The translations under genes and the position numbers were made by a program. This document shows, piece after piece, positions 4,279 through 63,356 of a stretch of 64,000 bases of DNA; the stretch's first letter is position 1; each line of letters opens with the position of its first letter. The stretch lies in assembly GCA_012838035.1 (NCBI GenBank), contig DUQB01000005.1, positions 28,510-92,509 on the forward strand, read 5' to 3'. This DNA is from Bacillota bacterium. GTDB lineage: Bacteria; Bacillota; Limnochordia; DTU080. Below the pieces are notes generated by a model. The model was not told where the DNA came from, searched no databases, and saw nothing but the letters and a program-made list of their open reading frames with translations.

Positions 4279-5640
4279 ATGCTTACGCATCCGGTCATAT
4301 TGTACGGTAAAAAAGAGAGTTCTGGGCCCTCGAAAAGGTTGCGCGTAGCCTTTACCACACTGGGATGCAAAGTCAACGTATATGATACGGAAATGGCGGC
4401 CGAGCAGTTTCGGCGGGCTGGGTATCAGGTAGTGGATTTCGACCAGCCGGCTGATGTGTACGTGATTAACACGTGCAGCGTTACGAATATGGGTGCCCGC
4501 AAGTCGCGGCAGATGATTCGGCGCGCCGTGAATTCGCACCCGGAGGCTGTGATTGTGGCCATGGGATGTTATAGCCAGTATGCCCCTGATGAAGTAGAAG
4601 CGATCGCAGGCGTTGATGTGTTGCTTGGCACCCAAGGCAGAAAACATATCGTAGAGTTGGTTGAGGCGGCCCGACAGAATAAACGCCGAGTGAATGCGGT
4701 GGGTACAATTATGGCGGAGCGGCAGTTCGAAGAGCTGGACGCGTTGCACTTTGAGGGACGGACGCGCGCGGTTTTGAAGGTACAGGACGGGTGCAACGAG
4801 TTTTGTTCGTACTGTCAAATTCCCTGGGCGCGCGGTCGCAATCGCAGTCGTCTGCCCGAACGAGTAATAGAACAGGTTCGAGGTTTGGTACGACAGGGTT
4901 TTCCCGAGATCGTACTCACCGGCGTGCACGTGGGTACCTATGGGGAGGATTTATCGCCAAAAACGTCATTGGCCGCATTGTTGCGGGAAGTGGCGCAGAT
5001 ACCCGGGGTGGAACGTCTCAGACTCTCGTCTATTGATCCGCATGAAGTGACCGACGAGTTGATTGAGGTCATGTCGGCCAACGCCAGTATCTGTCATCAC
5101 CTGCATATTCCGGCCCAATCCGGCGAGGACGGCGTTCTAGCGGCCATGCGGCGGCGTAATACCGTGCAGGAATACCGCAAGCTCGTTGCCCAACTCAGGC
5201 GTGAAATACCTGATATTGCCATCACCACGGATATCATCGCCGGCTTTCCGGGAGAAAGCGAGGAGAGCTTTCAGCAGACGCTCGCCTTTTGTCGAGAGAT
5301 GAAGTTCAACAAGATCCATGCATTTCCTTACTCTCGTAGGAAAGGTACCAAAGCGGATGCGATGCCCGGCCATCTGCCGCGGCAGGTAAAGCAGGAGCGG
5401 GCGCGTCGCCTGATCGCATTAAGCGATGAACTGGCCCTTGAACATCACCAGGCTTTGTTGGATCAGACAGTAACCGTATTGGTAGAACAACCCTCCGACT
5501 ATGCGTCGAAGTACGTGCAAGGGTTAACCGATACATATGTACGGGTACACCTGCCCGGTGACGGCCTGGAACCCGGAGATTTCGTGCAAGTCCGAATTGT
5601 GGCGGCCATGGTAGAGTCTGTTGTTGCCGTTATTTTATAG
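4279..5640 (+). CDS. mtaB: MiaB-like radical-SAM tRNA methylthiotransferase (MtaB/YqeV type), with a C-terminal TRAM domain
   Basis: N-terminal MTTase domain (VAFTTLGCKVNVYDTE), radical SAM CxxxCxxC (CNEFCSYCQIP) and a TRAM C-terminus. Its position next to hit and rpsU matches the B. subtilis yqeV neighbourhood. Confidence 0.75.
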   Translation: MLTHPVILYGKKESSGPSKRLRVAFTTLGCKVNVYDTEMAAEQFRRAGYQVVDFDQPADVYVINTCSVTNMGARKSRQMIRRAVNSHPEAVIVAMGCYSQYAPDEVEAIAGVDVLLGTQGRKHIVELVEAARQNKRRVNAVGTIMAERQFEELDALHFEGRTRAVLKVQDGCNEFCSYCQIPWARGRNRSRLPERVIEQVRGLVRQGFPEIVLTGVHVGTYGEDLSPKTSLAALLREVAQIPGVERLRLSSIDPHEVTDELIEVMSANASICHHLHIPAQSGEDGVLAAMRRRNTVQEYRKLVAQLRREIPDIAITTDIIAGFPGESEESFQQTLAFCREMKFNKIHAFPYSRRKGTKADAMPGHLPRQVKQERARRLIALSDELALEHHQALLDQTVTVLVEQPSDYASKYVQGLTDTYVRVHLPGDGLEPGDFVQVRIVAAMVESVVAVIL

Positions 5641-13161: not shown

Positions 13162-13188
13162 CGATTGAAGGATGGTGCCATAACACCA

Positions 13189-14088
13189 ATGAAACAAGAT
13201 TTCAGATCGGGTTTTGTCGCTATAGTAGGGCGTCCGAATGTGGGAAAGTCTACATTAGTGAATCATTTGGTTGGACACAAAATCGCGATCGTTTCAGATA
13301 AGCCGCAGACGACGCGCAACCGCATCCAGTGTGTTCTTACTCGCTCCGATGCGCAGGTGATCTTCCTCGATACTCCGGGAATACACAAACCGCGCCATAA
13401 ACTAGGCGAGTACATGGTGCAAGTGGCTCAAGAGGCGTTGGAGGGAGTCGATTGCATTCTATTCCTGGTAGACGGCGCAGCCGGAATAGGTTATGGCGAT
13501 CGCAAAATTGCCGAGCAATTGGCGAAGGTCGAAGCGCCGGTCATCTTGGTCGTCAATAAAGTTGATCGGATAACTCATGAACAGATATTGACCACATTGG
13601 CACCTACTCCGGATTTGGGTGATTTTCAGCATATTTTTCCCATCTCTGCAAAAACCGGCTACAATGTACCGGAGCTGCTTGATGTCGTCATCGGGCTGAT
13701 GCCTCCGGGACCAATGTATTTCCCTTCTGCAGAAATCAGTGATCATCCCGAACAGTTTGTTATGGCGGAGTTAATCAGGGAGCAAGCGTTAAGGTTCACA
13801 CGCGACGAAGTGCCGCATGCTCTCGCCGTCGTGGTCGATGCGGTGGAGCGCCGCGAGGACAAGGATTTGGTCGATGTACAGGCTACGATATATGTAGAGC
13901 GCGACTCCCAAAAAGGAATTATCATCGGCAAGCAAGGGAACATGCTTAAGGTGATCGGTTCTGAAGCGCGTCGAGAGATAGAAGCGCTTTTGGGTTCGCA
14001 GGTGTTTTTGCAATTGGCTGTAAAGGTGAATGAGAACTGGCGGAAAGAACCTAAGGTGCTGCGTCGGTTCGGTTACGTGAACGAGTAG
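13189..14088 (+). CDS. era: GTPase Era
   Basis: FRSGFVAIVGRPNVGKSTL (G1), DTPG (G3), NKVD (G4) and a KH domain C-terminus. ATG 13189 is preceded by GAAGGATGG; the ORF track extends it to 13165. Confidence 0.9.
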   Translation: MKQDFRSGFVAIVGRPNVGKSTLVNHLVGHKIAIVSDKPQTTRNRIQCVLTRSDAQVIFLDTPGIHKPRHKLGEYMVQVAQEALEGVDCILFLVDGAAGIGYGDRKIAEQLAKVEAPVILVVNKVDRITHEQILTTLAPTPDLGDFQHIFPISAKTGYNVPELLDVVIGLMPPGPMYFPSAEISDHPEQFVMAELIREQALRFTRDEVPHALAVVVDAVERREDKDLVDVQATIYVERDSQKGIIIGKQGNMLKVIGSEARREIEALLGSQVFLQLAVKVNENWRKEPKVLRRFGYVNE

Positions 14089-58318: not shown

Positions 58319-59020
58319 TTGACTTGGATTGCCGCCATCGGAGCGGTCTTGCTGCAGGGGCTGATGTTCCTTATCTCTTATGTGACGAACAATGTATTTC
58401 CCAACCCGCTCAAACCCGAAGAAGAAGCCATGTGTTTAGAAGCAATGGAGCAGGGAGATGAGAATGCCAGAGCTACGCTGATCGAACGCAACTTGCGCTT
58501 AGTTGCGCACATAGTGAAGAAATTTGACAATACCGGCGAGGATATCGACGACCTCATCTCCATTGGTACCATCGGCTTGATCAAGTCGATCAATACGTTT
58601 GATCGGCATAAACAGACTCGCCTGGCGACCTATGCCGCTCGTTGCATAGAGAATGAAATCTTGATGTATCTGCGATCCACTAAGAAGCAACGCAACGAAG
58701 TGATGTTGCACGAACCCATCGGATCGGACAAAGAAGGCAACGAAATAACCTTAATTGACGTATTAGCCAGCGATCATGATGTAGCCGAACGTGTGGAACA
58801 TAAGGTTGATCAGGAACAGATGTATGAACGCCTGCGACGCTTGACCAGAAGGGAAAAGCGTGTCTTAGAGTTGCGTTATGGGTTGGTGGACGGCGTACGC
58901 AAAACGCAACGGGAGGTGTCTCGCTATTTAGGTATCTCGCGTTCATACGTATCCCGGATTGAAAAACGCGCCATAAATAAGCTGCAGGAATCGCTGCTGC
59001 CCGACGGCACGCAAGGGTAG
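58319..59020 (+). CDS. sigK: RNA polymerase sporulation sigma factor sigma-K (pro-sigma-K), intact
   Basis: TTG start 6 nt after GAGGAGGTG. A pro-sequence (LTWIAAIGAVLLQGLMFLISYVTNNVFPNPL) is followed by region 2 (NLRLVAHIVKKFDNTGEDIDDLISIGTIGLIK) and region 4 (REVSRYLGISRSYVSRIEKRA), all closely matching B. subtilis SigK. The reading frame is continuous. Confidence 0.85.
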   Translation: MTWIAAIGAVLLQGLMFLISYVTNNVFPNPLKPEEEAMCLEAMEQGDENARATLIERNLRLVAHIVKKFDNTGEDIDDLISIGTIGLIKSINTFDRHKQTRLATYAARCIENEILMYLRSTKKQRNEVMLHEPIGSDKEGNEITLIDVLASDHDVAERVEHKVDQEQMYERLRRLTRREKRVLELRYGLVDGVRKTQREVSRYLGISRSYVSRIEKRAINKLQESLLPDGTQG

Positions 59021-59176
59021 GTTCCTTTATATACGGACGCATGCCTATGAAAGCCGACCGTAAAAACAGTCGGCTTTCTGTGCTATAATTAGCATTGTTT
59101 ATGTTGCGGAGCGGATATGAGGTTTAGCAGCCCGCTTTTCTTCGGGTGTCCGGCTGAATTTTTGGGAGGGAGCGCA

Positions 59177-59725
59177 TTGCTGAAGGTGTTCTGCCCGAAT
59201 GAAATGACGGGTTCTCTATTGGATATCGATCTGAATGCTCTTGCGGCACAAGGCATCAAAGCATTGATCATTGATTTAGACAACACCTTGATGGGCTGGG
59301 ATGCCGAGCAGATAACCTCCCAGATTAAAAAGTGGGTGCAGATGGTTAAAGCCAAGGGCTTTAGGATATGTATTGCCTCTAACGGTCTGAGCAATCGGGT
59401 AAAAAGAATTGCGGCAGAACTCGACGTTCCGGCCGTTCCCAAAGCGATCAAGCCGCGCAAGCGCCCCTTTAGGCTGGCGCTGCGTTTGTTAAATACTCGC
59501 TCCGATCAGACGGCGGTTATCGGGGATCAGGTGTTCACGGATATCCTGGGTGGGAATCGCATGAATTGCTATACTATACTTATCAACCCCATCAGCCGCA
59601 AGGAACTGCGTTCCACACGGTTTATGCGCCGGGTTGAACGCCGGATACTGCGTCGCTTACATAAAAAAGGTTTGGTACAAGACAAAAGCTATAGGCAAAG
59701 GCTGGGTATTTATAAACGTGATTAA
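59177..59725 (+). CDS. yqeG: YqeG-family HAD-superfamily (subfamily IIIA) phosphatase
   Basis: TTG start after GGGAGGGAG. LIIDLDNTL (DxD motif), ...IASNG..., VIGDQVFTDILGG. Conserved yqeG-yqeH pair. The ORF track extends the start to 59117. Confidence 0.8.
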   Translation: MLKVFCPNEMTGSLLDIDLNALAAQGIKALIIDLDNTLMGWDAEQITSQIKKWVQMVKAKGFRICIASNGLSNRVKRIAAELDVPAVPKAIKPRKRPFRLALRLLNTRSDQTAVIGDQVFTDILGGNRMNCYTILINPISRKELRSTRFMRRVERRILRRLHKKGLVQDKSYRQRLGIYKRD

Positions 59726-59819
59726 TCTGTACCTGCATAGTCCTTATCCATTGGGTTGTCCCATAGCTACGCGAGTCATGGGGATTCGGGCAGGTGTTCA
59801 CATGAGGAGGAACTGAGGA

Positions 59820-62033
59820 ATGCGGGAGCGCTTTTGTAATATCTGTGGCAATAAACTGCAAAGCGCGCATCCTGGTGCAATAGGATACGTCCCTAATCGG
59901 GTTCTGTTGGGAACCAGCAGCTCGGTCTGCCAAAGGTGTCATCGCGCCCGCATAGCCTCCGTGCCGGCCGGCAGGAATCAGGAAGTTGCATCCGGAGGTG
60001 TCAGGCGAGTGCTTGAAAAAGCCGACCTGTCTTTACTCGTGATAGATATTACCGATTTTGAGGGGACTTTCAGTAAACGTCTTCTGCGACATTGCGGCCG
60101 TAAGCTGATGCTTGTGGTTAATAAAATCGATCTTCTACCTGGGCGTATATCGCGCAGCAACATATTGGCGTGGGTGACTCGGCGTTTAGCAGATGCGCAT
60201 GTAGATACTCAGGGCGTGTTCCCGGTCAGTATGCAGAAAGGCAGCGGTGTTACGACGTTATGGGATGCGGTAATAAAAGAACTCAATGGACAAGGCGTGG
60301 TCACGGTCGTAGGCGTGGAAGGCGTGGGCAAAACCGCCTTAGTGAACAGTTGGTTGGAGTATAACAAGGCGCAAGCGGCTAAGAAGAAAAAAACGCGTCG
60401 CAAGAGTATGCGCGGCACGAGCGACGATAAGGCGGATACTACTGTTACCTTGGCGCAAGCAGACGGAAGTGTCGCAAAGGAACCGGAACGTTCGCCGTCT
60501 CAGGAACACGGCATTGAGCGAGAAGTCCTGCGTGAAGATCAACCGGGTATGGCAAAAGAAATCCCCTCAAAGAGCGAGTCGGAGCCTATCATCATTATTG
60601 AACAGCCTGCCCTGTTTGATCTTATACCCAGCCGGAAACCGGATGTTGTCGTTAGCGATGACGCAGTGCCGGAATCGATGCCGTTGTCGCCGACCGAGCA
60701 ACGGCAGGAGGACCGACCACAAACGACGGTGAAGCCTCAGGAGGGGAAAACAGCCCCTATGCCGATTGATGATATTGCTGACTCAGATGCTGCAGACAGC
60801 TCCGGTGTTAAGGCAGTCAGTCCGAGACCGAAAAAGCGCAGGCGCTCCTATGCTACGCGGCGGCGGGCGAAAAAACCTGCTGTTCATGCTCAAGCGCCCG
60901 ATAAAACCGCTGCCGACGCAGCTACCACTGAGGGGGAAACAGCGGCTTCGGCATCAACAGCAGGAGCGGAACCTGTTCCGGTTCCCACGCCTCCGTTCTC
61001 CAAGCCGGACGCGTTGTCACAGCAAGCGGAGAATGCAACGCCGGAGCCTAAACCCAAAGTTAAGTCTAAACGCTCCCGCCGCCGCAAAGCAAAGAAACCA
61101 GGTGAAAAAACAGGCGCCCAGCCACCGGGGATTGATCATATAAAGAGCGACGCTGCAAAGGCGGCGCCGCATCCGAATAAGACTAAAAAGGGGAAGACGC
61201 CCAAGCAGGCCGAACGGAGCGCGAAAACCTCCCGAGTCGGCACGGAACCCGTTGCCGAGGTTATCGCTACGCAAAGTGAGTCGGCGGAGGTCAAGGCCAA
61301 AAGCAGTCGGCGCAGGTCGCGAAGGCGCCGTACGGTCAAACCGGTTCCGACGAAATCCCCGGTGGTGTCTACAGCTGTTGCCAGTGAAGTAAAACAGCTG
61401 AAAGCGGAACATGAGCCCGCAACTTCAGCACAAACCGCCGTACAGGTCCAGACCAAGGCGGATGGAAAACCGGCTGCCGCAATAGGTAAAGCGCCGGCCA
61501 AGCCGGCCGTCGAGCCAAAGCCGGAGACGCTGGAGATTAAGGTTATCGACACTTTGAGCGTACCAGCCCGAGGGCGCATGCGCGATTCACTATGCGCGCA
61601 GTGTACTATGGATTTCAGCATACAAAAACCTTTACGGAGCAGAGTGATCCGTTTAAAGGCGGGACAAGGCGCGGTGTTCGCCGGCCTGGTCGCCATTGCG
61701 GTATTGGAGATAGCCGATGAGGATGATGCGGCTTCACTGTTGATCTATATGCCGCCCGCCATTACCGTGCAGCGAGTTCCCGGTACGGCCATAGACGAAT
61801 TCCTCCAAGGAGAAAACCGACCTTGGCGCATGGATGTATGCGCCGGCTGCATGGAACACCTGCTGCAAGGTGGTTGGGAAGAGACCGAGATGAGCGTAGA
61901 TGCGCTGCACGACCTGGCGCTGCACGGTATGGGCTGGCTGACGGTGCGCAAAAGTACGGTCACCATGCGCGTGTTGGTTCCAGTCGGGATGTTGGCCTCC
62001 ATGCGCCCTCGCTTGCTCGGCGTAAAAGCGTAA
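59820..62033 (+). CDS. yqeH: Ribosome-biogenesis GTPase YqeH homolog (circularly permuted GTPase) carrying a ~390-aa basic disordered insertion
   Basis: N-terminal Zn-ribbon CNICGNKL...CQRCHR, G4 LVVNKIDLL and G1 GVEGVGKTALVN. A low-complexity K/R/P/A/S/T/E-rich segment spans residues ~183-568 (nt ~60366-61523). The YqeH C-terminal domain follows (IYMPPAITVQRV, HGMGWLTVRK), with DTLS at the G3 (DxxG) position. Confidence 0.75.
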   Translation: MRERFCNICGNKLQSAHPGAIGYVPNRVLLGTSSSVCQRCHRARIASVPAGRNQEVASGGVRRVLEKADLSLLVIDITDFEGTFSKRLLRHCGRKLMLVVNKIDLLPGRISRSNILAWVTRRLADAHVDTQGVFPVSMQKGSGVTTLWDAVIKELNGQGVVTVVGVEGVGKTALVNSWLEYNKAQAAKKKKTRRKSMRGTSDDKADTTVTLAQADGSVAKEPERSPSQEHGIEREVLREDQPGMAKEIPSKSESEPIIIIEQPALFDLIPSRKPDVVVSDDAVPESMPLSPTEQRQEDRPQTTVKPQEGKTAPMPIDDIADSDAADSSGVKAVSPRPKKRRRSYATRRRAKKPAVHAQAPDKTAADAATTEGETAASASTAGAEPVPVPTPPFSKPDALSQQAENATPEPKPKVKSKRSRRRKAKKPGEKTGAQPPGIDHIKSDAAKAAPHPNKTKKGKTPKQAERSAKTSRVGTEPVAEVIATQSESAEVKAKSSRRRSRRRRTVKPVPTKSPVVSTAVASEVKQLKAEHEPATSAQTAVQVQTKADGKPAAAIGKAPAKPAVEPKPETLEIKVIDTLSVPARGRMRDSLCAQCTMDFSIQKPLRSRVIRLKAGQGAVFAGLVAIAVLEIADEDDAASLLIYMPPAITVQRVPGTAIDEFLQGENRPWRMDVCAGCMEHLLQGGWEETEMSVDALHDLALHGMGWLTVRKSTVTMRVLVPVGMLASMRPRLLGVKA

Positions 62034-62189
62034 TCGATACGTTTAAATGACACGAATCCGTCCCTGATGCGCCGCGATAGCAATCTATGGTTGAGCGCCG
62101 CCCCACGGATGATATACACTAGGGCAAATAGAGCGGTAACGATCGTCGGCTGCAAGCCGTTGTCGTTGCGAACCTCAGGAGGTTAGGTT

Positions 62190-63356
62190 ATGCTGAGATA
62201 TTTGACTGCGGGAGAATCGCACGGGCCGGCCCTAGTGTCTATTTTGGAAGGTATGCCGGCAGGATTGGCATTAAGCGCAGACGACATAAACGTGCAACTG
62301 GCCAGAAGGCAACTTGGTTATGGTCGCGGACGACGCATGGAGATAGAATCCGATCGAGTCATGTTCCGTTCGGGAGTGAGACACGGCGTAACACTAGGTA
62401 GTCCGATTGCGCTGGAGATCACCAATCTGGATTGGCGGCAGTGGGAAGTGCGCATGGATCCGACCCCTAACCCGGATTACAAGCCCAACCCGGTGACTAA
62501 ACCGCGACCGGGCCACGCCGATTTGCCCGGCGCGTTGAAATATGGCCACCGGGATGTACGTAATGTGCTGGAGCGGGCCAGTGCGCGGGAAACAGCCAGT
62601 CGCGTGTGCGTCGGGGCTGTAGCCCGTCGCTTATTGGCGGAGTTCGACATACACGTCTATAGCCATGTGCTAAGCATAGGCGGCGTGCACGCCCGGCGCG
62701 TCAATCTGCCGCCGGCGCAGTTACACGAGTTGGCCGAGAGCAACGACGTCCGCTGCACCGACACAGGCGTCGTGGATGCCATCCATCAGGCCATCGACGC
62801 CGCCAAGGCGAATGGAGACACATTGGGCGGCGTGTTTGAAGTGCTGGTGACGGGAGTGCCGCCGGGACTAGGGAGTCATGTACAGTGGGATCGCAAGCTG
62901 GACGGACGTCTGGCGCAGGCCTTGATGAGTATGCAGGCCATTAAAGGCGTAGAGATCGGGATGGGTTTCGCCGTGGCGGAGACGCCTGGTTCGCAGGTTC
63001 ATGATCCCATTGCCTACGATGCGGCGTCGGCTTTCGGTTTTATTCATACAAGCAACAACGCCGGCGGTATTGAGGGCGGCATGTCCAACGGCGAAACGAT
63101 CGTCATACGCGTAGCCAAAAAGCCGATCTCCACCTTGTATAAGCCCTTGGCCAGCGTGGATCTGGAGACCAAACAGTCTTTTGCCGCCAGCATAGAACGT
63201 TCCGACACCTGCGCTGTACCAGCGGCATCCGTGATTGGCGAAAACATCGTCGCTTTTACCATTGCCCAAGCCTTTTTGGAGAAGTACGGCGGCGATTCCA
63301 TTGCGGAAATCCGCCGCAACTACATAGGTTATCTGACTGAGATTAGAGAGAGATAG
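62190..63356 (+). CDS. aroC: Chorismate synthase
   Basis: MLRYLTAGESHGPALVSILEGMPAGL...GRGRRMEIE...RPGHAD. 388 aa. Confidence 0.9.
   Translation: MLRYLTAGESHGPALVSILEGMPAGLALSADDINVQLARRQLGYGRGRRMEIESDRVMFRSGVRHGVTLGSPIALEITNLDWRQWEVRMDPTPNPDYKPNPVTKPRPGHADLPGALKYGHRDVRNVLERASARETASRVCVGAVARRLLAEFDIHVYSHVLSIGGVHARRVNLPPAQLHELAESNDVRCTDTGVVDAIHQAIDAAKANGDTLGGVFEVLVTGVPPGLGSHVQWDRKLDGRLAQALMSMQAIKGVEIGMGFAVAETPGSQVHDPIAYDAASAFGFIHTSNNAGGIEGGMSNGETIVIRVAKKPISTLYKPLASVDLETKQSFAASIERSDTCAVPAASVIGENIVAFTIAQAFLEKYGGDSIAEIRRNYIGYLTEIRER

Follow-up and report, generated by a model that had tools for sequence, protein, structure and literature searches.

YqeH is a circularly permuted GTPase which is reported to be important or essential for assembly of the 30S subunit of the ribosome in Bacillus subtilis (PMC2848588, PMC2741578). 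Its departure from the nascent subunit is assumed to be powered by the GTPase cycle. Hydrolysis of GTP by the B. subtilis enzyme needs K+, which is held by the K-loop of switch I (S193 and F195; GTTLD, residues 197–201) together with Asn-169 of the P-loop; the replacements N169L and N169Q abolish activity, and D57I abolishes catalysis too (PMC2848588). The 64-kb stretch of contig DUQB01000005.1 from a Limnochordia bacterium that was analyzed here (the window; all coordinates refer to it) contains a complete, derived yqeH orthologue (59820..62033, plus strand) encoding 737 amino acids (aa) plus a stop codon, in which switch I has given way to a long polybasic segment of predicted disorder and the motifs for guanine nucleotide binding are retained. 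On balance, the sequence favours, if only slightly, a nucleotide-binding, hydrolysis-impaired YqeH that would serve as an rRNA chaperone or placeholder largely without hydrolysis and would be tethered to rRNA by its polybasic linker.

In its general layout, the window protein resembles the YqeH of B. subtilis and Geobacillus (TIGR03597; Protein Data Bank (PDB) entries 3ec1 and 3h2y). The N-terminal zinc finger CxxC...CxxC (C6, C9, C37 and C40; 59835..59939, plus strand, as are all features of the gene) aligns with the family cysteines and is kept in the canonical relatives. The GTPase motifs follow in the circularly permuted order G4-G5-G1-G3, which is preserved although G2 is missing: NKID at G4 (residues 101–104; 60120..60131), SMQKG in the G5 region (residues 137–141; 60228..60242), the P-loop GVEGVGKT at G1 (residues 165–172; 60312..60335), which fits GxxxxGK[ST], and, as placed by the alignment and by AlphaFold2, strand β3 with the degenerate G3 EIKVIDTLS (61533..61559), where DTLS (residues 577–580) stands for DTPG. 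The C-terminal domain occupies 61560..62030 and, as is usual for bacterial yqeH, the gene lies directly 3' of yqeG. A Shine-Dalgarno-like GAGGAGG (59804..59810), read from the sequence, is located 9 nt 5' of the ATG. The window protein differs from bacterial YqeH in the distance between G1 and G3, which is 412 residues as opposed to about 50 (48–52 in most of the approximately 38 unrelated, canonical metagenome loci among the matches listed, which are mostly canonical YqeH and served as the background for motif spacing; G1 and G2 are about 30 residues apart in these loci). It also has neither the K-loop with PGTT nor strand β2, carries Gly168 in the P-loop at the position of the K+-ligand Asn, reads DTLS at G3, scores 130.8 bits against the TIGR03597 equivalog cut-off of 297.4, and possesses an extra CxxC...CxxC in the C-terminal domain that is common to the Limnochordia-type subfamily.

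The loss and retention of motifs follow a consistent pattern in the multiple alignment. Canonical-type relatives show GATNVGKS, PGTT and D[TA]PG. By comparison, all five derived forms, including the window protein, lack the P-loop Asn (replaced by Gly or Arg), the PGTT/K-loop and strand β2, and none of them has lost GxxxxGK[ST], NKxD or the G5 Ser. Across the 13 sequences of the subfamily, at approximately 35% identity, G165, G170, K171, N101, K102, D104 and S137 are invariant. The wider family conserves the lost Asn, PGTT and DTPG to at least 90%, and these motifs are near-universal in the approximately 38 metagenome loci among the matches listed. T570 of the window protein is not conserved even in its closest orthologue, P0002. 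Judged from the sequence, therefore, the catalytic elements that have been lost are the P-loop Asn, the K-loop with G2, and the G3 Gly. Substitution of the DxxG glycine, as in Ras G60A, blocks the γ-phosphate-coupled transition of switch II. The expected effect of the losses on activity comes from the mutagenesis of B. subtilis YqeH; where that enzyme has Asn-169, the window protein carries Gly, and its K-loop is missing altogether. Another GTPase encoded in the window, Era (13165..14088, plus strand; 390.6 bits against a cut-off of 237), has canonical GRPNVGKS, PQTT, DTPG and NKVD motifs, so the erosion of motifs is specific to YqeH.

The segment that takes the place of switch I, the K-loop with G2 and strand β2 comprises residues 186–568 (383 aa; 60375..61523). 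It has a net charge of +25 and an isoelectric point of 10.0, with 14% hydrophobic and 84% disorder-promoting residues, and the AlphaFold2 confidence score (predicted local distance difference test, pLDDT) is below 50 for nearly all of residues 209–568. Searches of Pfam and PDB returned no similarity for the insert. Among the other open reading frames (ORFs) of at least 100 aa in the window, none has a comparable basic cluster or stretch of low hydrophobicity, so the insert does not reflect a genome-wide compositional habit. Four basic clusters are found in it. Cluster 1, KKKKTRRKSMR (residues 188–198; 60381..60413), is predicted to extend helix α1, which in the AlphaFold2 model runs on through residues 171–198, and is present in 5/5 members of the clade. 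Cluster 2 (residues 337–353) follows an acidic patch (PMPIDD...KAVSPRPKKRRRSYATRRRAKKP; 60756..60878), an order kept in P0002, P0062 and P0016; PKKRRRSYATRRRAKKP lies within residues 313–353, and this stretch is 61% identical to P0002 as against 26–40% in the spacers. Cluster 3, KPKVKSKRSRRRKAKKP (residues 411–427; 61050..61100), is conserved in the same three relatives, and cluster 4, KAKSSRRRSRRRRTVKP (residues 492–508; 61293..61343), is common to the window protein and P0002 only. The hydrophobic island PIIIIEQPALFDL (60585..60623) is likewise conserved only with P0002 and is not ordered in the AlphaFold2 model. We considered this island as a relic of β2 and G3 (LYDTPG-like) and rejected it, because the spacing from DTLS to the C-terminal domain equals the canonical G3 spacing and because the island is absent from P0062 and P0016 and disordered in the model.

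Alignment of the inserts of the window protein, P0002, P0062 and P0016 reveals three elements in a common order: KKKxxRRK(S/T) continuing helix α1, a hydrophobic-acidic patch [ML]xIxD..D followed by KAV...(K/R)RRR...RR(K/R), and SKR(S/N)..RRR..KK. The first of these forms the C-terminal tail in the split form described below, and the fourth cluster and the PIIIIEQPALFDL island are restricted to the window protein and P0002. Relative to P0002, the basic clusters are 55–67% identical, as opposed to the 26–40% of the spacers, and spacer length varies strongly among clade members. In-frame tandem repeats of 15 nt and 30 nt occur in the spacers of relatives, and P0005 differs from P0062 by a single EQTPV unit; slippage thus explains at least part of the expansion of the insert. 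Tandem Repeats Finder detected no tandem repeat in the window ORF, so recent tandem expansion does not account for the insert there. At 60900–61500, the coding strand of the insert shows a strong A-over-T skew of up to +0.48, and the long minus-strand and off-frame ORFs listed there (e.g. 61136..61696, minus strand, 186 aa) are by-products of composition, not genes.

These observations bear on several claims of an earlier note on this DNA. The uninterrupted 737-aa frame was borne out by the ORF reading; the poly-basic clusters that it quoted and DTLS were all found, on re-reading, at the residues given; and DTLS in place of DxxG was confirmed by the alignment, which puts it at the canonical G3 and shows an identical DTLS in P0002. 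Its view that a conserved C-terminal domain resumes after the basic block agrees with the recovery of YqeH C-terminal domains by HMMER and with the fold match of the AlphaFold2 model. G4 and G1, described there as intact, are so with respect to NKID and GxxxxGK[ST] but not with respect to the P-loop Asn of the family (GxxNxGKS), which is Gly168. Similarly, the block does lie after G1, at switch I, as proposed, but it replaces switch I (the K-loop with G2 PGTT) and β2 rather than being inserted within them.

The assignment to YqeH draws on both profile searches and structure prediction. The best NCBIfam model is TIGR03597 (E=6e-38), which covers residues 6–185 and a weak C-terminal stretch. Pfam gives weak GTPase matches and YqeH-like_C (PF21516) at residues 639–730 with 17.8 bits, under the cut-off of 27.7, and HMMER with residues 570–737 recovers YqeH C-terminal domains; a YqeH-type C-terminal domain is thus present by predicted fold, not by curated score. 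The closest PDB structures by sequence are YqeH 3ec1 and 3h2y, followed by NOA1. The AlphaFold2 model was built on an alignment of 42 sequences, few of them insert-bearing. In this model, pLDDT is mostly 82–97 over residues 1–200, with a dip at approximately 41–60 and values of about 90 or more across 61–200, and about 90 over residues 570–737, where the strand at 572–577 is confident (approximately 89). Foldseek superimposes the model on YqeH 3h2y and 3ec1 over the whole chain with template modelling (TM) scores of 0.78–0.79 (target-normalised). NOA1 in mitochondrial small-subunit intermediates comes next, then other circularly permuted GTPases, and RbgA is among the best fold matches. The G-domain fold is, in this prediction, retained. 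The additional CxxC...CxxC of the subfamily (C592/C595, 61593–61604, and C674/C677, 61839–61850) is located in the region that follows G3 and in the C-terminal domain. The motif is invariant in 13/13 YqeH of the Limnochordia/Syntrophothermus type and absent from the Galdieria-like red-alga-type homologue in the alignment and from the Bacillus/Staphylococcus-type YqeH consensus; it probably forms a second zinc site.

The earlier note had left room for a sequencing or assembly artefact, such as a chimeric join or frameshift, and the unusual length and low complexity of the gene might suggest one. An identical protein is, however, encoded on seven contigs. The four that were examined each stem from a different, independent sample and were assembled by one of two pipelines (Logan SRR31066337 and SRR13001968; JGI 3300061517 and 3300002898), and their 2,214-nt ORFs differ from that of the window by at most one synonymous single-nucleotide polymorphism, at nt 771. 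Moreover, divergent orthologues, at 54% identity or less, share the architecture, with an open frame, basic motifs and DTLS. The syntenic orthologue P0002 (769 aa, JGI 3300064362; 54% identical overall) keeps the frame, the four basic clusters, the PIxIIEQPxLFDL island and KVIDTLSVPARGR. Nonsynonymous divergence (dN, Nei-Gojobori) between the two proteins is 0.13 in the N-terminal domain (ratio to synonymous divergence, ω, approximately 0.12), 0.21 in the C-terminal domain (ω approximately 0.13) and 0.56 in the insert, where ω is not computable overall and synonymous divergence (dS) is saturated; the conservation islands of the insert coincide with the basic clusters. One of the four contigs, L002 (JGI 3300061517), has different flanks on both sides, which could speak for an artefact, but it still holds the entire ORF. 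We give the artefact virtually no chance and regard it as refuted. L002 matches the window only over 58809..62082. On the left, the match ends within sigK (58292..59020); what remains is a sigma fragment of 125 aa, ahead of which lie unrelated genes (the gyrA C-terminus and one for a solute-binding protein), and the right flank is also unlike that of the window. A chimera, a rearrangement or an element that interrupts sigK, as the skin element does in B. subtilis, could each account for L002.

An exhaustive HMMER search with residues 570–737 identified 58 relatives among 1.84 billion representatives, among which are additional long forms as well as the closest proteins of normal length. All insert-bearing loci have the gene order ruvX-DUF1292-mltG-sigK-yqeG-[yqeH]-aroC-aroKB-aroQ-pepP-efp-spoIIIA, the full order being shared by the window, P0002, P0062 (671 aa), P0016 (386 aa) and the split form. 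The canonical-type P0012 and P0014 (381–400 aa) share at least the sigK-yqeG-yqeH core, and P0014 also the whole downstream run. Because a canonical yqeH of 380–400 aa occupies the same slot downstream of yqeG in sister lineages, the window gene is the positional orthologue of canonical yqeH and not an extra paralogue at the locus; no canonical copy was seen between yqeG and aroC. In the window, yqeG (59117..59725, plus strand), the conserved upstream partner encoding a HAD-IIIA phosphatase, scores 138 bits with TIGR01668 against a cut-off of 89, and aroC (62190..63356, plus strand), the conserved downstream neighbour encoding chorismate synthase, is supported by NCBIfam and synteny; NCBIfam also bears out the identities of sigK, yqeG and aroC.

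In a neighbour-joining tree, the only type of tree made (284 ungapped columns), the five derived forms are monophyletic with 98.7% bootstrap support, and therefore have a single origin; the sample of the clade consists of these five forms, with the split form coming from one population. The window protein (insert of 378–383 aa) and P0002 (769 aa, insert of 410 aa) share the P-loop GVEGVGKT, DTLS at G3 and the zinc finger. P0062 (insert of 310 aa) has the same P-loop and the zinc finger and still carries DAPG at G3, so switch I was lost before the G3 glycine. P0016 has GATGVGKT, an insert of approximately 85 aa and DTPD, and the split form (164 + 167 aa) has GADRVGKS, a basic tail of 24 aa and KVAS; the zinc finger is absent from both. 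Alignment to orthologues thus answers whether the insertion is lineage-wide: it is found in all five derived forms, in one clade. In outline, the data support the earlier note's suggestion of a 30S-assembly GTPase whose centre degenerated as it acquired a basic tail, here as a feature of a monophyletic Limnochordia clade with losses broader than DTLS; the rRNA-binding role it gave to the tail is suggested by composition, and loss of hydrolysis is likewise something we infer.

A sister Limnochordia population has its yqeH orthologue divided in two precisely where the insertion lies in the other forms (L035–L037, 4514..5008 and 5001..5504; L041). The N-terminal half (164 aa) has no zinc finger, carries GADRVGKS and ends in the basic tail AKPKKRVRRRSKAKRRKKAVAQGV. 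The C-terminal half (167 aa) starts with GTG in the +1 frame, overlaps the stop codon of the first half by 8 nt and has KVAS at G3. The split was seen on about 30 contigs, and, as L041 and L036 are approximately 98.6% identical in nucleotide sequence, these appear to represent one population. The split form may be a two-piece protein or a recent disruption. Frameshifting of the dnaX-like −1 type at cgA AAA AAG just upstream in the split gene was considered and dismissed, since a −1 slip meets a stop codon and the C-terminal half lies in frame +1. Among the canonical-type proteins of normal length with intact G motifs, P0011, P0014 and P0017 (L081–L082) have short Arg/Lys-rich C-terminal tails, e.g. 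GPKRAARRVRRRPRLK, which suggests that the lineage tends to furnish YqeH with basic RNA-binding tails, whether ahead of the loss of switch I or unconnected with it.

The eukaryotic homologues NOA1, Mtg3 and BPG2 show that the YqeH family tolerates insertions around switch I. The uncharacterized proteins P0126–P0130, found among the NOA1-type matches, have 80–90 aa of acidic, Ser-rich low-complexity sequence between G1 and G2, which are 108–121 aa apart. Vertebrate NOA1 has approximately 100 aa between G2 and G3, and the Galdieria-like homologue P0004 has an insertion of approximately 30 aa. The eukaryotic insertions (P0126–P0130, P0136–P0144) are independent, so the switch I region is an insertion hot spot of the family. 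The insertion-bearing eukaryotic proteins keep GxxNxGKS, PGTT and DTPG, except for Galdieria sulphuraria P0003, in which the segment from PGTT to DTPG is missing. In contrast to the window insert, which replaces motifs, these insertions are acidic, Ser-rich or helical and are added to intact motifs, and they reach at most about one quarter of its size. In a mitochondrial small-subunit intermediate, h44 is kept from docking by the globular domains of NOA1, which also sequester h27, and by its N-terminal extension, which occupies the h44 site; the GTP site is empty and is occluded by a helical insertion of NOA1 close to switch I (PMC9892005). By analogy, this cryo-electron microscopy structure offers a model for placeholder behaviour of the window protein.

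Other circularly permuted GTPases of ribosome assembly, Nug1/nucleostemin, Nog2 and Lsg1, are secondary sequence and fold matches of the window protein. Basic regions that serve RNA binding or nucleolar targeting are present in Nug1 and nucleostemin. Those regions are terminal extensions, however, not replacements of switch I, and Nug1 is reported to retain K+-dependent GTPase activity (PMC4770245). The window protein also fits the concept of the pseudoGTPase, in which the G-domain fold is kept and catalytic motifs are degenerate, as described from bacteria to humans (PMC12490416, PMC10731463); examples are degenerate septins and AAGAB. Class i pseudoGTPases of the AAGAB type have lost nucleotide binding as well, whereas the binding motifs are invariant in the clade of the window protein. 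Neither a pseudo-YqeH nor a YqeH with switch I replaced by a disordered region turned up in our literature searches.

We propose that a single ancestor of the clade would have lost the apparatus of K+-dependent hydrolysis, that is, the K-loop/switch I with the G2 threonine, strand β2 and the P-loop Asn, and that a disordered linker with three ordered Arg/Lys-rich motifs would have taken the place of the lost switch I. The spacers between the motifs would later have grown from approximately 85 aa to 310–410 aa, partly by in-frame slippage, and G3 would have eroded afterwards, to DTLS in the window protein. The window protein keeps the core of the G domain with the P-loop lysine and threonine and NKxD, along with both the zinc finger and the RNA-binding C-terminal domain. 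A guanine nucleotide is most likely still bound and hydrolysed poorly or not at all. The protein would act on the nascent 30S subunit as an rRNA chaperone or placeholder, to which the polycationic linker would give an electrostatic, multivalent attachment to rRNA.

Several points weigh against this proposal. The TIGR03597 score of the window protein falls short of the equivalog cut-off, and that of the canonical-type relative P0014 does too (215 against 297 bits); since both are below the cut-off, the whole Limnochordia-type subfamily is divergent. The equivalent of Asp-57 is placed inconsistently by the two PDB template alignments. A second, canonical yqeH may exist elsewhere in the genome, our view being limited to 64 kb. 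Binding of rRNA by the insert is suggested by its amino acid composition, structural constraint instead of nucleotide binding may be what keeps the P-loop and NKxD conserved, and a catalytic element may be supplied by the ribosome or by the insert.

That last possibility would make the protein a still active GTPase with a rebuilt centre, in which an arginine finger, provided in cis by the acidic-basic motif of the insert or in trans by the ribosome, replaces K+ and hydrolysis is gated by RNA. There is a precedent for the topology, as the helical domain of Gα is inserted at the same position between α1 and switch I, with the catalytic Arg in the linker/switch I segment just after it. In B. subtilis YqeH, K+ occupies the position of the arginine finger and the K-loop sterically excludes such a finger (PMC2848588), so that removal of the K-loop opens the site; in addition, the order [ML]xIxD..D...KAV..(K/R)RRR is conserved in four lineages, and the P-loop, NKxD and, in 4/5 members, the G3 Asp are retained. 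We nevertheless regard a rebuilt centre as unlikely: there is no G2 threonine to coordinate Mg2+ and the γ-phosphate (T570 not being conserved in P0002), the G3 glycine is gone in 3/5 forms, AlphaFold2 docks no part of the insert, with its pLDDT below 50, onto the G domain, and in the split form the basic sequence amounts to no more than a short tail. Quite improbable is the more specific version, in which the in-cis arginine finger comes from the acidic-basic motif of the insert and is released or positioned only when the linker engages rRNA. If true, it would be a bacterial, RNA-gated analogue of the Gα insertion at the equivalent position, and the split form of the sister population would rebuild the G domain from two polypeptides.

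The lost catalytic motifs would also be expected if the protein had been neofunctionalised away from ribosome assembly, as a nucleoid or DNA-binding, polyanion-binding or condensate-forming protein with the G domain as a scaffold. The insert is a block polyampholyte of H1-like composition, and the homologues NOA1/C4orf14 and BPG2 are reported to associate with organelle nucleoids (PMC3401442, PMC11260468). Such a shift is doubtful, however, given that the gene keeps its position next to yqeG with no canonical copy seen at the locus, that the zinc finger and the C-terminal domain, the RNA-interaction modules of YqeH, are under purifying selection (ω approximately 0.12–0.13), and that basic tails are typical of rRNA-binding assembly factors. 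Alternatively, the gene might be decaying toward a pseudogene, dispensable through other 30S factors such as Era and RsgA, with the insert as neutral slippage junk. The stepwise erosion of G3 from DAPG to DTPD or DTLS and then to KVAS could be read in this way, and so could the loss of the zinc finger in P0016 and the split form, the splitting of the gene in one population, the fast evolution of the insert (dN 0.56), and the slippage repeats with their copy-number variation in relatives. Decay is nonetheless very unlikely, as approximately 380–410 codons have stayed open in four lineages despite saturated dS, ω of the folded domains is about 0.12, the ordered basic motifs are kept down to a relative of 34% identity, the Shine-Dalgarno sequence is strong, and GxxxxGK[ST] and NKxD are invariant.

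The exact 737-aa sequence was not found under an NCBI accession, in contrast to its flanking genes (HHT25744/HHT25746 and MGI6541805/MGI6541807). A scan of GTDB representative genomes with YqeH patterns returned no close relative of the organism; with AroC, the best matches (54–59% identity) were in Paenibacillus and Gemmatimonadota-type genomes, with no yqeH in their flanks. An Rfam scan of the window gave no match. The names that P0001, P0002 and P0016 carry in their sources are inconsistent: 'Ni2+-binding GTPase involved in maturation of urease and hydrogenase', 'hypothetical protein' and 'ribosome biogenesis GTPase A'. Proteins of this clade should be annotated as YqeH-like and flagged as probably catalytically impaired, not as 'Ni2+-binding GTPase', 'hypothetical protein' or frameshifted; the curated cut-offs currently miss the entire Limnochordia-type subfamily.

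The clade thus represents a natural lineage that lacks switch I and the K+ ligand in a protein encoded at the orthologous locus, with its motifs for binding nucleotide and its domains for binding RNA preserved. It provides a ready-made test of whether the function of YqeH needs GTP hydrolysis or only nucleotide binding and occupancy, and it shows how a disordered polycationic linker might stand in for a switch.

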